From Candidatus Saccharimonadales bacterium (GTDB lineage: Bacteria > Patescibacteriota > Saccharimonadia > Saccharimonadales > UBA4665): a DNA stretch of 64,000 nt. The stretch is taken from assembly GCA_035278105.1 (NCBI GenBank), contig DATEJI010000108.1, positions 142,350 to 206,349 on the forward strand. The letters are read 5' to 3'. The notes beneath the pieces are model-generated. The model saw only the letters and a list, made by a program, of their open reading frames with translations. It ran no database searches and was not told the DNA's origin. A program made the position numbers and the translations under genes. Positions 22,187 to 26,774 of this stretch are shown here, piece by piece (within the stretch, counting starts at the first letter, position 1; each line of letters starts with the position of its first letter).

Positions 22187-23065
22187 TTACTCAACAGCCT
22201 CAGCAAAGCCGTGGAGTAGCCGCTGTTCGTTCATTGCCGCGGTGTATTCTGGAGACAACGGAAATGGATCTTCGGGCTGCGCATATTGCTCGCGGCACGC
22301 TTCGGCCGCATACACCGCTTGCGGATTGTAGGTTAGTGCTGGCGTCGGCGCGGTGTCGGCAATAATGCGCGAGGCATAGTAGCTCATGCCTTCCGCGTAG
22401 GCTGGCAAATCGTCGACATCTTCGCTGTAATGTACCGAGAGCATGTTGTCCTCACCCAAGACGTGCGCGATTTCGTGCCCTAACATGCTGGCAACCATGA
22501 ACGGTTGCGGTGGTATGCCTGTCGTGTCTTCGGCAATCCGAATAGCGACAAACGGCTTTGAATGAATCTGAACGGTATACCTCCCATCCTTCCAGGAGAC
22601 GTGCCGGCTATACGTCCAGGCACTATCGGGCACATCATAAGGGTCAATGTCATACGGAAACTCGGTGAGTGTGGCATTGGCGCACGCAATAAATGAGGCG
22701 ATATCCTCTTCGGTGGCTTCGTATATTTGCCGCATGGTGTCGTGTGCCTCGCGTTCCCGAACAGATCCTATCGCAAATGCTGATGGATCAAAACTGAGCC
22801 GACCTTCGGCCACATCGTGCGGCAACAGCGGCACAATCATCAACCGATCACTGTCGCGATACTCTCTTGGCACAGCTATAGCGTCGCCGTCCATATTCGG
22901 TATAAACGCGCCTTCCAACCGCGAGGCCATACGCTCTGCCATGCCGGCGCCGAGCAACGATCCGTCGAGCGCCTCAACAAAATCAGGATGCTTCAACACA
23001 GACAAACCAGCTTCTATAACCGCATCAAATTGACGGACGCGCTCACTCCCAGTATAAAAAGTCAT
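22187..23065 (-). CDS. Orphan HExxH metalloprotease-like protein (family A, copy 3)
   Basis: GHEIAH...AEGMSY; N-terminus ERVRQFDAVIE..LKHPDFV matches copies 1-2; TATACT-N6-ATG. Confidence 0.65.
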   Translation of the reverse strand: MTFYTGSERVRQFDAVIEAGLSVLKHPDFVEALDGSLLGAGMAERMASRLEGAFIPNMDGDAIAVPREYRDSDRLMIVPLLPHDVAEGRLSFDPSAFAIGSVREREAHDTMRQIYEATEEDIASFIACANATLTEFPYDIDPYDVPDSAWTYSRHVSWKDGRYTVQIHSKPFVAIRIAEDTTGIPPQPFMVASMLGHEIAHVLGEDNMLSVHYSEDVDDLPAYAEGMSYYASRIIADTAPTPALTYNPQAVYAAEACREQYAQPEDPFPLSPEYTAAMNEQRLLHGFAEAVE

Positions 23066-23148: not shown

Positions 23149-24129
23149 TCAGCCATCAGTCGGGTCGTGTTGGCGCGCGTGCTCATTGAGATACTCGCGG
23201 ATGCGCAGCGCCGCTGTGGCACCTTCGCCGGTGGCGCTGGCGATTTGCATGGTGGCGCCGCTGTGTACATCACCAGCCACGAAGACACCGGGGATGGCGG
23301 TTTGCAACTGGTCATCACTCTTGATAAAGCCGACATCATCAAGCTCGACGGCGCTGCCTTGCAAAAACTCGGTGTTGGGCTTGAGACCGACGAATACGAA
23401 CACGCCGTCGGTTGGAAACTCCACTTTTTGGCCGGTGGTTTTGTCGGTGCCGACGACCTTCACAACCTTGCCATCCTGGCCCACGATTTCATCTGTCGTC
23501 GTATTAAAATGCACGGTGATCTTATCTTTGTGCTTTTCCTCAAGCTCGTGCTGCAAGATTTCGCTGGCGCGCAAGTGATCGGAGCGCGCTAATAGATCGA
23601 TGTGACTGGCAAACCGCGTCAAGAACATCGATTCTTGCACCGCGGAGTTACCGCCGCCAACCACCACCAAGCGCTTGTCGCGATAAAATGCCCCGTCGCA
23701 TGTCGCGCAGTAATGCACGCCGTGGGCGTAATATTCTTGCTCGCCAGGCACACCAATCTTTCTGTAGTCGCTGCCGGTGGCGATGAGCACGGCTTTGGCG
23801 AGCATCGGGCCGCTGGTTGTCTCTAGTCGTTTGTAGGCACCTTCGTCGATAATCTTGGTTACTTCGCCGAGTTCGATGTGGGCGCCAAAGCGCTCGGCCT
23901 GAGCACGTAAATCGTCAGCCAACTGCAAGCCGGCAACGCCTTTTGGAAAACCAGGATAATTATCTACCCAGTCGGTCACCGCGGCCAGGCCGCCGACCAC
24001 GCCGCGCTCAAACAGCAGGGTGTCGATATCCTCACGCGTGGTGTAAATTGCCGCGCTGAGCGCCGCCGGACCGGCGCCGATGATAACGACGTCGTGCACC
24101 GGCACTTGCGATGAAGTAGCCTCCGTCAT
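23149..24129 (-). CDS. trxB: Thioredoxin-disulfide reductase
   Basis: GAGPA, HYCATCDG, GGGNSA, FVAGD; start at MTEATS. Confidence 0.95.
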   Translation of the reverse strand: MTEATSSQVPVHDVVIIGAGPAALSAAIYTTREDIDTLLFERGVVGGLAAVTDWVDNYPGFPKGVAGLQLADDLRAQAERFGAHIELGEVTKIIDEGAYKRLETTSGPMLAKAVLIATGSDYRKIGVPGEQEYYAHGVHYCATCDGAFYRDKRLVVVGGGNSAVQESMFLTRFASHIDLLARSDHLRASEILQHELEEKHKDKITVHFNTTTDEIVGQDGKVVKVVGTDKTTGQKVEFPTDGVFVFVGLKPNTEFLQGSAVELDDVGFIKSDDQLQTAIPGVFVAGDVHSGATMQIASATGEGATAALRIREYLNEHARQHDPTDG

Positions 24130-24136
24130 AGTGATG

Positions 24137-24385
24137 TTACGCAACCGCCGGGGCGAGCTTTGCCAGATTAAATCCCACAACAACTTCTTGTGAGTCGTCG
24201 TGCTTGGTTACAACCGTAACCGGTACGGTAAGTGCGCCGCTCAGCGCCAGAGCTTCGGCTTGGCGTTCGGGGTTAGCATCAAGGTTTACTACTTCGTAGC
24301 CCAGACCTTTGGTGTCCAGCCACTTTTTTACCATGGCGCAGTAGGCGCAAGTGTTCGTGGTGAAGATAGTAATACGTTTGACCAT
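24137..24385 (-). CDS. Glutaredoxin / NrdH-like redoxin
   Basis: CAYC active site, TVPV, VVGFN; upstream of trxB. Confidence 0.9.
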   Translation of the reverse strand: MVKRITIFTTNTCAYCAMVKKWLDTKGLGYEVVNLDANPERQAEALALSGALTVPVTVVTKHDDSQEVVVGFNLAKLAPAVA

Positions 24386-24427
24386 AATTCCCCCTTACAA
24401 GATGTTTTGTTTTACTGCTTACGTTTT

Positions 24428-24468
24428 ATTATATGTAGCGCTTTGTTTATGCGCAAGGCGCTACATAT
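24428..24468 (-). promoter_or_regulatory. Sigma70 promoter of glutaredoxin-trxB overlapped by an 11-bp inverted repeat
   Basis: TTGCGC (24451-24456)-N17-TATAAT (24428-24433) on the minus strand; ATATGTAGCGC 24431-24441 / GCGCTACATAT 24458-24468. Confidence 0.6.
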
Positions 24469-24481
24469 TGTGTTTTTTACG

Positions 24482-25033
24482 TTACCTACCGCCGATGGAG
24501 TGCAGCGTGACATCGAACACGAGATCGGCATTGGCCGGAATGCCAGATCCCGACGGCGGATTGGCGCCATACGCCAGCGAGGCTGGAATCAACAGCCGGC
24601 GCGTACCGCCCACTTTCATGCCAGGCAAACCTTGCGTCCATCCCTGAATAACGCCATTCAAACCGAAGCTGACGGGCTGGCCGCTATCGAGTGAACTCTG
24701 AAAAATAACACCAGTCGCCGCTACAGCGCCCGTATAATCCACGGTAACTGTATCGCCCGATTTTACCTCTTGGCCGGTCCCGGCAGTTAGATCGTCTGCT
24801 TGCAGATGGTCGATCTTGGCGATAGGCGTAAAATCTTGCAGCTTCGTGCCTTCCAGTTTGCCCTTCGAGCTGTTGCTGGTGCTTTGTGTGCTATTGGTTT
24901 GGTCCACGTGTTTCGACTCCTTACTATTTTTGTACAACTGCCAGATAACGGTGAAACTCAGTGCAAATGAAAACCCAAAGAACAGCACCGCAATGATTAG
25001 GGCAATAATCCGCTCACGCTTACGCGTTGCCAT
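24482..25033 (-). CDS. Membrane-anchored FKBP-type peptidyl-prolyl isomerase
   Basis: N-terminal TM; VTVDYTG, VIQGW, MKVGGTRRLLIP, LAYG. Confidence 0.93.
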   Translation of the reverse strand: MATRKRERIIALIIAVLFFGFSFALSFTVIWQLYKNSKESKHVDQTNSTQSTSNSSKGKLEGTKLQDFTPIAKIDHLQADDLTAGTGQEVKSGDTVTVDYTGAVAATGVIFQSSLDSGQPVSFGLNGVIQGWTQGLPGMKVGGTRRLLIPASLAYGANPPSGSGIPANADLVFDVTLHSIGGR

Positions 25034-25128
25034 ACATACTCTCCTCTTCCCTCTTGTTGGTCTTATTATACGCGCGCTGCAGAATGCTGACCAGCAGCGA
25101 CTGTCGTAATTTTGACGCGCCGGATTAC

Positions 25129-25157
25129 TTGACGCGACCGAACACCCACACTACACT
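25129..25157 (+). promoter_or_regulatory. Sigma70 promoter of the GNS microprotein
   Basis: TTGACG (25129-25134)-N17-TACACT (25152-25157); a second TTGACGCG copy at 25112-25119. Confidence 0.7.
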
Positions 25158-25186
25158 GGATGCACACATAAACGTAAGGGGGATAT

Positions 25187-25333
25187 ATGAGCAGTATACT
25201 TACCAATGGTGGCAACTCGGGTGGCAATGGCAATTCCAGTGGGAATGGGAATTCGAGCGGGAACGGCAATTCTCAAGGAAACAGGGCATCAGCCGTACAG
25301 AGTGCCAGCATTCGCAAGCACATCGGCGCCTAG
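25187..25333 (+). CDS. 48-aa Gly/Asn/Ser repeat peptide (not in ORF track)
   Basis: MSSILTNGGNSGGNGNSSGNGNSSGNGNSQGNRASAVQSASIRKHIGA*; RBS GTAAGGGGGA, the same as before the glutaredoxin gene; own promoter and terminator. Confidence 0.7.
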   Translation: MSSILTNGGNSGGNGNSSGNGNSSGNGNSQGNRASAVQSASIRKHIGA

Positions 25334-25349
25334 CGTCTGTGTCATCAGC

Positions 25350-25383
25350 AAATACACCTGGGGTTGCCCCAGGTGTATTTTTT
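25350..25383 (+). terminator. Intrinsic terminator after the GNS peptide gene
   Basis: Perfect 14-bp stem AAATACACCTGGGG-TTG-CCCCAGGTGTATTT running into a T-tract. Confidence 0.85.
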
Positions 25384-25401
25384 ATGGTCGGTGCCAGTGT
25401 T

Positions 25402-26772
25402 CTATGTCTGGCCACGAAAGCCGGGATCGACCGCCGAAGGCGTTGGCCACATTGGAATACCGCCATAACTGACGCTTTGCACGCGTCCGGCGGCAAACTT
25501 ATAGTGCACGAACTCACCATCGGTTGCGACATTGCCGGGGCTGCAGATACGAAGGGCGCGCGCCGACAGCGCTTCGAGCCGGTCGGGCCAGGCAAACGGT
25601 TCCCACTCATCCGGATCAACGGCAACAACGCTATCGCCGACGGCAACAATCCTTACAATAGCTAGCGGACTGTAGAGCCAGGTGTCGAGCTTCCGCAGCC
25701 TTGGCGGCGTGGGTTGTGTGGCGTGCTGCGCAAAAAAATCGAGAATGCCCACGATACCGCGCGCAATCTGCATACACGGCGCGTCCTTGCAGTTTGCCGC
25801 CACCGAAACGGCGCAGCGCTGCGATGGATCAAACAGCGTAACGGTGGTGTGTCCGCCAGCATGCCCGGTGTGACCGACGAACCGCCGGCCGCCGATACTG
25901 AATAGCTCACAGCCGATACCGTAGGCATAGCCAGCGTCGAACCCATTTGGCACGCTCCACTGCACGCGCTGCATTTCGCGCTTTTGCGCGTCGCTCAGGA
26001 AGGTTTCGTTGCCCAAAAAATGACCGGCGGCAAATCGGCACATGTCCGCGGGCGTCGCACACAAGCCGGCAGACGGAGCAAGCGCCCGCGCCGGCTGCAC
26101 ACCGAGTGGTCGGCGACTGCGCTCGAACAACACGCCGTAGCCCGTGGCCAACGGCGCGGCGACACTCCTACTATCCAGCGCGGCTGTCTGCATAGCAGCC
26201 TCACGCAGTAGCGGCATAGCAAGCTCCGGCCACGTTTGCCCGCTCGCCGCTTGCACCACCTGGCCGAGGAGCGCAAAACCGAGGTTCGAATATTTGAGCG
26301 CCGTGTTCGGCGGATGCGTTAGCTGCGCGGCAAGCACTGCTGCGCGAAGTTTCTGCTCATCCGGAAACGGCTCGTGCATATGCCAGTAGCCGGCCGGTGC
26401 AGCTTCGCGAGGCAAGCCGGCGCTGTGAGTGGCGAGCTGACGAACGGTTATACTCTGCATGCGTTGATCGCTGTGCTGGGCAAGCCAGGGAAGATAGGCA
26501 ACCATTCGGTCGTCCAAGCCAAGCTTGCCAGCCCCGACGAGCTGGAGCAGCAGCGTTGCAAGCAGCATTTTGGTTTGCGACGCCACGCAAAAAAGGTGCT
26601 TGGAAGTAAGTGCCTCGCCGGACGCTTCATCGGCCAGGCCATATGCGTGTTCAAACCGGTCGTCACCGCACAAAATCGCTAGACTCACGCCTGGTATATC
26701 CAACGTGCGCACCCGATACGCCAGCCAGTCGTCTATACAATCAGTTGCCTGCAAAAACGCCGCGCGCCGCAT
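25402..26772 (-). CDS. Serine hydrolase, beta-lactamase/PBP fold
   Basis: SxxK (ASQTK), YxN (YSN), HTG motifs. Confidence 0.9.
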   Translation of the reverse strand: MRRAAFLQATDCIDDWLAYRVRTLDIPGVSLAILCGDDRFEHAYGLADEASGEALTSKHLFCVASQTKMLLATLLLQLVGAGKLGLDDRMVAYLPWLAQHSDQRMQSITVRQLATHSAGLPREAAPAGYWHMHEPFPDEQKLRAAVLAAQLTHPPNTALKYSNLGFALLGQVVQAASGQTWPELAMPLLREAAMQTAALDSRSVAAPLATGYGVLFERSRRPLGVQPARALAPSAGLCATPADMCRFAAGHFLGNETFLSDAQKREMQRVQWSVPNGFDAGYAYGIGCELFSIGGRRFVGHTGHAGGHTTVTLFDPSQRCAVSVAANCKDAPCMQIARGIVGILDFFAQHATQPTPPRLRKLDTWLYSPLAIVRIVAVGDSVVAVDPDEWEPFAWPDRLEALSARALRICSPGNVATDGEFVHYKFAAGRVQSVSYGGIPMWPTPSAVDPGFRGQT

Positions 26773-26774
26773 GC

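Follow-up and report, generated by a model that had tools for sequence, protein, structure and literature searches.

A small-protein gene lies in a 64,000-nucleotide stretch of contig DATEJI010000108.1 from the Candidatus Saccharimonadales bacterium assembly GCA_035278105.1 (the whole stretch is referred to below as the window). It sits between two minus-strand genes, one for an FKBP-type isomerase and the other for a serine hydrolase of the S12 family with the penicillin-binding protein (PBP) fold, and it converges on the latter (Table 1). An initial annotation had described the region as a complete stand-alone transcription unit for a 48-residue GNGNSS-repeat peptide, and the strong ribosome-binding site, the open reading frame (ORF) and the 14-bp terminator that it listed were all found in place. 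The promoter is present as well, although it was overstated as near-consensus. Since sites of its grade (9/12) are about as frequent in shuffled sequence (10 found in a scan that includes this one, against 7.1 expected by chance), the promoter says little by itself; a match of at least 9/12 lies upstream at about half of the homologous loci described below. The hairpin of the terminator (25350-25380) closes a 3-nt loop with 14 perfect pairs, is followed by TTTTTTAT, and ranks first among the terminator-like sites in a 12-kb scan. Within the ORF, positions 25210-25272 form a period-18 array according to Tandem Repeats Finder (3.5 copies, 80% matches). When the three GNGNS(S/Q) units were compared pairwise, 10 of the 12 differing codons were synonymous in the frame of the ORF, against 0/12 and 1/12 in the other two frames, which upholds the earlier proposal of selection on the peptide. 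The peptide matched 0 Pfam families, and Rfam gave no credible match in 24000-26500 (best 16-20 bits against gathering thresholds of 40-57, none over the ORF). Judged from its sequence, ORF 25187-25333 is a real, separately expressed small-protein gene under selection at the level of the peptide.

Table 1. Coordinates of the small-protein gene, its partner and the surrounding features in the window
Feature	Position	Strand	Remark
Small-protein gene, 48 aa, including TAG stop	25187..25333	+	family of ~20 distinct convergent small ORFs
Candidate promoter, sigma-70-like, TTGACG-N17-TACACT	25129..25157	+	9/12 match, within the inserted block
Shine-Dalgarno GTAAGGGGGA	25174..25183	+	3 nt ahead of the ATG at 25187
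N-terminal motif M-S-S-I-L-T-N-G	25187..25210	+	from alignment and codon listing
Gly/Asn/Ser repeat spacer, period-18 array, three GNGNS(S/Q) units	25210..25276	+	
Basic C-terminal motif I-R-K-H-I-G-A	25310..25330	+	family-conserved
Intrinsic terminator between the convergent genes	25350..25386	+	T-run on peptide strand
Predicted cytoplasmic S12/PBP-fold serine hydrolase, 456 aa, lipocalin-like C-terminal domain	25402..26772	-	PF00144
Acidic loop D-P-D-E-W-E-P-F, lipocalin-like domain (residues 386-393)	about 25596-25619	-	clade-specific
Inserted two-gene block (peptide unit and hydrolase)	25075..26774	.	left boundary approximate
Likely FKBP promoter TGGTCA-N17-TATAAT	25065-25093	-	10/12 match
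FKBP-type isomerase gene	24482-25033	-	left neighbour of the peptide ORF
Glutaredoxin-like gene	24137-24385	-	

Searches with the peptide itself were fruitless. A tblastn-type search of 40 relatives gave no real homologue, 5.8 billion clusters yielded no match in a word-based search, phmmer gave 0 matches among 1.84 billion representatives, and the best score in the ESM Atlas (0.60) was meaningless. A match in genome G011 (E 0.006) was rejected because the matched part is the low-complexity N-terminal end of a membrane protein (289 aa) that is unrelated. A related-loci search with the single hydrolase sequence also returned nothing, but the same search succeeded when an alignment was used. The closest hydrolase homologues are 42-49% identical, and every close homologue with readable downstream DNA has a convergent small ORF of the same build 45-130 nt behind its stop. 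These ORFs are found behind the hydrolases of loci L025, L026, L028, L029, L030 and L031, in two genomes of the same genus (G006 and G012), in named Saccharibacteria metagenome-assembled genomes (L040-L042) and, from a metagenome scan, in L060, L066, L067, L080 and L088; L068, L058 and L063 have more diverged peptide tails. Two arrangements depart from the simple pair. On the metagenome contig L065, which carries two hydrolase paralogues (L065:2-163 and L065:1844-3121), the 3' end on which the small ORF converges belongs to the additional paralogue, the first copy on the contig, and in L095 a single gene is inserted between peptide and hydrolase. A profile search added three called proteins, and the resulting alignment (A3) holds about 20 distinct peptide sequences of 27-73 aa. 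None of 20 members has a meaningful match in NCBIfam (best E-value 0.086). The unit is thus stand-alone as originally described only in its signals, which are autonomous, but the gene is one half of a conserved convergent pair.

In alignment A3 the family begins with M-x-x-hydrophobic-x-x-G-(N/A)-S, shares a Lys-rich stretch that often contains K-x-P, and ends with [RK]-K-[HR]-[VI]-G-X-stop, with V, A, L, I, M or Q in the place of X. No variation is seen at M1 or at the penultimate Gly (G47 in the window peptide), and conservation reaches at least 90% at R43 and K44; the net charge of the tail ranges from +2 to +6. The spacer is rich in Gly, Asn, Ser and Ala, and its unit, period (about 5-7 residues) and copy number vary by lineage, with GNGNSS, NGAST, GNSGPTG, SGNSGA and GASNSQ as examples of the unit. 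Repeats are nearly absent from the 27-28-aa members (the 28-aa peptide at L036:2889-2972, for instance) and numerous in the 73-aa member (L040:3934-4152). AlphaFold2, run on the 20-sequence alignment, gave a peptide devoid of secondary structure (pTM 0.14), and the repeats are accordingly modelled as a disordered spacer. A reading of the repeats as N-glycosylation sequons was rejected by inspection, since most of the homologous repeats (N-G-A-S, G-N-S-G) do not conform to N-x-S/T.

The expression signals are as regular as the termini. A Shine-Dalgarno sequence of the GGAGG/AGGGG type at the same spacing, and a hairpin with a T-run on the peptide strand after the small-ORF stop, are each present at all 18 peptide loci. 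The stop codon is TAG at 16 of the 18, a codon that ends only about 40% of the long ORFs nearby, and the tail motif favours CGC-AAG codons where the background use of CGC is 20-47%. An absolute invariance of the nucleotides CGC-AAG-CAC, seen in the first 11 loci, had to be dropped when synonymous variants appeared among the 18. The codon preference together with the excess of TAG points to a constraint at the level of nucleotides or of the termination context.

In a maximum-likelihood tree of 33 hydrolase sequences, all 18 peptide-linked enzymes fall into a single clade (support 100/99) with long internal branches. The linked enzymes are only about 40-50% identical, branch lengths reach 1.6, and the window hydrolase itself has a long terminal branch of 1.01. 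A sister group (L037, L039 and L069) has convergent small ORFs with a similar N-terminus and degenerate tails. No convergent peptide was found beside the hydrolases of a 36-37%-identical subclade, nor beside homologues from Dormiibacterota, Bacteroidota, Actinomycetota, Gemmatimonadota and archaea. Approached from the side of the peptide, the profile built on A3 matches only G000, G006 and G012 among 61 related genomes, which are exactly the carriers of a core-clade hydrolase, with one match each and always adjoining the hydrolase gene. An earlier peptide profile had matched only G000 among 400 genomes of the phylum, and no orphan copy of the peptide was found in those 400 or in the 55 related genomes that lack the hydrolase. 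Since the other neighbours differ from locus to locus (NUDIX, MetRS, SerRS, GT2, SLT, ABC), the module is confined to the peptide-hydrolase pair. Inclusion of the ABC exporter was considered and rejected because it abuts the FKBP gene in relatives without the module, and because the upstream neighbours of the hydrolase differ elsewhere. The loci are not independent of each other by descent, and the groups are defined by the very feature that is counted; the real argument for linkage lies in how deep the divergence is and how varied the contexts are. On this comparison of loci, the peptide and a Saccharibacteria-specific clade of predicted cytoplasmic S12 PBP-fold hydrolases form a conserved convergent two-gene module, and the two proteins probably act together. 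That the small protein is predicted to be disordered, belongs to a conserved family and shares a convergent module with one hydrolase clade is a conclusion in which we place high confidence.

The hydrolase matches PF00144 with E 1.3e-53 (182.8 bits against a cut-off of 27) and its active-site motifs are intact: S65-x-x-K68, Y161-S-N163 and G300-H301-x-G303 are invariant in 20/20 members of the clade. The best full-length sequence match in the PDB is SurE (6KSU, E 1.5e-26), the founding PBP-type peptide cyclase. An AlphaFold2 model (pLDDT 88, pTM 0.90) places the strands of the C-terminal domain at 364-443, and its best full-length match in Foldseek is the IS11 esterase (7SPN, E 1.4e-27, TM 0.66), with further full-length matches to SurE, Pab87 (2QMI), the Lip3 DL-peptidase (9SN1) and Ulm16 (8FEK); the R61 DD-peptidase matches the catalytic domain. 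The model therefore suggests a PBP fold with a lipocalin-like domain, in the architecture of SurE, Pab87 and IS11. This predicted fold is common to peptidases, cyclases and esterases and does not tell them apart, and since the best match is a promiscuous esterase, the fold alone is unable to fix the substrate class. The catalytic motifs and the lipocalin-like domain are also those of the PBP-type thioesterases. A nonribosomal peptide synthetase (NRPS) gene was not found adjacent to the hydrolase in the window or in the fetched homologous loci, the whole genome not having been searched for one, and it is because the structural features are present but the NRPS context is not that we do not file the enzyme as a PBP-type thioesterase.

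What distinguishes the linked enzymes is an acidic loop in the lipocalin-like domain, with the sequence D-P-D-D/E-W-E-P-F in 17 of the 18. In unlinked relatives it is either neutral (N-P-N-T-W-Q-P-F in the nearest unlinked subclade) or absent. The loop is altered in L058, L063 and L068, whose peptides have less basic tails. Some members of the clade (L058:2001-4283, L063:2001-3962, L032:2501-4774) carry a C-terminal fusion to DUF6879 (PF21806) that brings them to 650-760 aa, and the small ORFs that converge on these fused genes likewise have less basic tails (K-Q-V-G-L, K-T-V-G-Q).

The module occupies a block of the window that extends from the FKBP promoter to the stop of the ABC-transporter gene, with the hydrolase gene starting 2 nt after the ABC exporter gene. 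In G011, the closest relative (FKBP 78% identical), the ABC gene abuts the FKBP gene directly, as it does in three other species or genomes of the genus. The -10 region of the FKBP promoter (tattatacgcgc on the plus strand) is kept in G011 and forms the left edge of the insertion, homology between the two genomes ceasing just after this common tattatacgcgc. The GC content of the hydrolase gene is 60-65%, compared with 48-58% in the flanks. From the direct adjacency in relatives, the end of homology and the shift in GC content, it follows that the peptide and hydrolase genes of the window genome were acquired as an insertion of about 1.7 kb; the GC excess fits a recent acquisition from a Saccharibacterium of higher GC. 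The FKBP/ABC junction (25034-26774, loci L004-L022) is a variable slot in the genus, empty in four species and elsewhere filled by unrelated genes that encode 170-450 aa. The slot upstream of FKBP never holds the peptide ORF in the other species of the genus, and the peptide homologues within the genus are located elsewhere in the genome, beside the hydrolase. The module is a compact accessory unit that moves among soil Saccharibacteria and is patchy within the genus. The source genome measures 1.66 Mb at 95% completeness, its named relatives are Candidatus Saccharimonadales/Saccharibacteria, and the sole sequencing run found with the locus is a rhizosphere metagenome (DNA), probably the one from which the genome came. 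Further to the left, the second-best terminator-like site of the 12-kb scan is a hairpin at 24431-24468 (plus strand, 16 bp with a T-rich tail), which lies between the glutaredoxin-like gene and the FKBP gene on the strand opposite to both; an ORF at 22187-23065 (minus strand, 292 aa) is without a Pfam match.

How the two proteins might act together is a question of more tentative answers. We propose that the peptide is a dedicated substrate of the linked hydrolase, an idea that we regard as plausible but would expect to fail somewhat more often than to hold. The basic tail of the peptide would dock on the acidic DPDDWEPF loop of the lipocalin-like domain, the two being complementary in charge, which we count in favour of a substrate. 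The catalytic Ser65 would then attack the bond that joins the variable last residue to the invariant Gly before it, and the last residue would leave to give a peptidyl-Gly acyl-enzyme. This intermediate could be resolved by water (trimming), by the N-terminal amine of the peptide itself (head-to-tail cyclisation, as in SurE) or by another amine (transpeptidation), and the repeat region would be only a flexible hydrophilic spacer. Since Gly is the sole ribosomal residue that fits a D-specific P1 pocket, the step would mirror the cleavage of D-Ala-D-Ala by DD-peptidases. The PBP-type cyclases load a C-terminal D-residue, and some of them load Gly (WolJ, Ulm16 and SurE G235L; PMC11735501). In SurE the nucleophile is Ser63, and a residue of the lipocalin domain holds the substrate (PMC10835440).

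Several observations weigh against the substrate proposal. The convergent genes are not co-transcribed, which is unusual for an enzyme and its substrate. Neither the peptide nor the hydrolase has a signal peptide that could be seen by eye, so that the product has no obvious destination. Known PBP-type cyclases use thioesters and not peptide bonds, and classical DD-peptidases expect the leaving group to be a D-residue, where here it would be an L-residue. The residue aligned to G235 of SurE is Ala in the window enzyme and Val, Thr, Ala or Ile in the clade; since it is non-Gly in linked and unlinked enzymes alike, it is not diagnostic, and we rejected it as evidence of Gly specificity. The counts of linked loci overstate their independence because the loci are related to one another, and no RNA run with the locus was found among the runs listed. 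With these points included, the explanation as a whole, from module to substrate mechanism, is one that we favour while giving it a little less than an even chance. Its most specific form, in which the peptide naturally serves a SurE-like enzyme as acyl donor and is cut at Gly-X and then cyclised head-to-tail or ligated to another amine as a 27-72-residue product, is considerably more doubtful, and a truly new peptide-maturation chemistry is hardly a likely outcome.

The same strict co-occurrence and co-divergence would also be expected if the peptide regulated the hydrolase, as a pseudo-substrate inhibitor or a partner subunit, with its Gly-X tail filling the active site or binding the acidic loop so as to restrain a potentially harmful cytoplasmic D-peptidase. 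Basic tail and acidic loop would be equally complementary in such a complex, and separate, convergent and strongly signalled expression would permit an excess of the peptide. However, it is not obvious what purpose a disordered spacer of variable length and a conserved N-terminal motif would serve in an inhibitor, an operon structure of the toxin-antitoxin kind is not present, and we know of no S12 enzyme with such a partner, which also counts against it. We therefore judge regulation, and the inhibitor version of it, to be unlikely while taking it seriously. A looser association, in which the small protein functions independently (say, as a disordered hydrophilic protein with a stress or protective role) and travels with the hydrolase through a common bidirectional terminator and movement as a block, draws on the disorder, hydrophilicity and low complexity predicted for the peptide, on its autonomous signals, and on the mobile, accessory character of the module (inserted in the window genome and patchy in the genus). 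It does not sit well with a linkage that survives very deep divergence and many different neighbourhoods, with the lack of orphan copies in the genomes surveyed, or with an acidic loop specific to the linked clade, and it is in our view less probable again than regulation.

The remaining explanations concern the repeats or the transcript, and are much weaker. The initial annotation had suggested a precursor of a peptide made by the ribosome and modified post-translationally (RiPP) with repeated cores, and a variant in which the GNGNSS units are multiple cores cut out and modified finds some encouragement in the purifying selection on the repeats in the window genome and in the adjacent peptide-acting enzyme. 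But the units vary among homologues in sequence, period and number and almost vanish from the shortest members, alignment A3 contains no conserved cores with flanking recognition or cleavage sequences of the cyanobactin or orbitide kind, only the termini being conserved, and the module has neither a RiPP recognition element (RRE) nor a known class-defining maturase. Multiple cores are thus very improbable. In the broad sense alone, that of a gene tightly paired with a peptide-acting enzyme fold, the term RiPP-like survives: a short ribosomal ORF linked to such an enzyme is found at every core-clade locus with downstream DNA, and nothing other than PF00144 is conserved in the module. The other suggestion made at the outset, a self-assembling beta-solenoid, amyloid-like or ice- or surface-binding peptide, could appeal to the regular 6-residue Gly/Asn/Ser repeat, but this occurs in one genome only. 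Neither a repeat of conserved period nor an ordered fold was found: the modelled peptide is unstructured, the length and period of the repeat region are not conserved where the termini are, and there is no signal peptide, so that we attach almost no weight to self-assembly. As little can be said for a small RNA (sRNA) or dual-function RNA with an incidental ORF, in spite of a short transcript with a strong terminator and the hint of nucleotide-level constraint in the CGC-AAG preference and the 16/18 TAG stops. Homologues that keep RNA structure and lose the frame had been named as the sign of an sRNA, and the outcome was the reverse. Across about 20 diverged homologues the frame stays open and the N- and C-terminal motifs both persist, even though there are indels and the DNA has diverged to saturation, in company with a Shine-Dalgarno sequence and a terminator; coding is therefore favoured. 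Synonymous variants in the tail codons (CGT, CGA, AAA) and the lack of an Rfam match point the same way.

The substrate proposal invites comparison with several known systems. The closest are the PBP-type thioesterases or cyclases (SurE 6KSU, Ulm16 8FEK, WolJ, PenA), of which SurE leads the full-length sequence matches in the PDB and is also among the top matches in fold. The known members act in trans on carrier-protein thioesters in the NRPS clusters of actinomycetes, whereas the hydrolase described here is about 23% identical, is Saccharibacterial and has a ribosomal peptide of 27-73 aa as its conserved partner. The D-stereospecific S12 peptidases (the Streptomyces R61 DD-peptidase, the 'CubicO' protein Pab87 2QMI, the alkaline D-peptidase of B. 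cereus and Lip3 9SN1) have fold and motifs in common with the hydrolase, and Pab87 is likewise cytoplasmic with a lipocalin-like domain. They cleave a C-terminal X-|-Y bond through an acyl-enzyme and release the last residue, which is the chemistry that we propose, but they act on D-amino-acid peptides that derive from peptidoglycan, a dedicated linked ribosomal peptide is found with none of them, and the acidic DPDDWEPF loop is peculiar to the peptide-linked clade. The thermophilic esterase IS11 (7SPN) came from metagenome screening, is promiscuous and is without a known peptide partner.

Sortases with their LPXTG signal, PatG and butelase likewise read a short C-terminal recognition motif, lose a leaving group and resolve the acyl-enzyme with an amine. 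Their folds (Cys transpeptidase, subtilisin and legumain, respectively) are unrelated to that of the hydrolase, and we claim no membership in these groups. The mycofactocin precursor MftA is also a small ORF with a conserved extreme C-terminus beside its processing enzyme, but a radical-SAM enzyme, an RRE or another known RiPP maturase is not part of the peptide-hydrolase module. The pair may best be described as a kind of peptide plus processing-enzyme gene pair. No RiPP pathway with a PBP-type or S12 enzyme was found in a limited literature search and, as far as that search shows, the enzyme class of the partner is new for RiPPs.

What began as an orphan ORF has become a defined small-protein family of about 20 members that share clear motifs and have a fixed partner in the genome, and this illustrates that synteny can rescue low-complexity small proteins that are missed by sequence search and by most gene callers. 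SurE-type peptide cyclases, which have their fold in common with the DD-peptidases, are now used as biocatalysts. If the substrate proposal is true, the PBP-type cyclase/transpeptidase fold would gain in the peptide its first ribosomal substrate, and a natural Gly-X peptide substrate would remove the need for thioester substrates and define a new maturation route. The module would then represent a new minimal two-gene RiPP-like class in the ultra-small episymbiotic Saccharibacteria. Since these bacteria have very little biosynthetic capacity, a dedicated pair of this kind may matter for their cell envelope or for how they interact with host bacteria.

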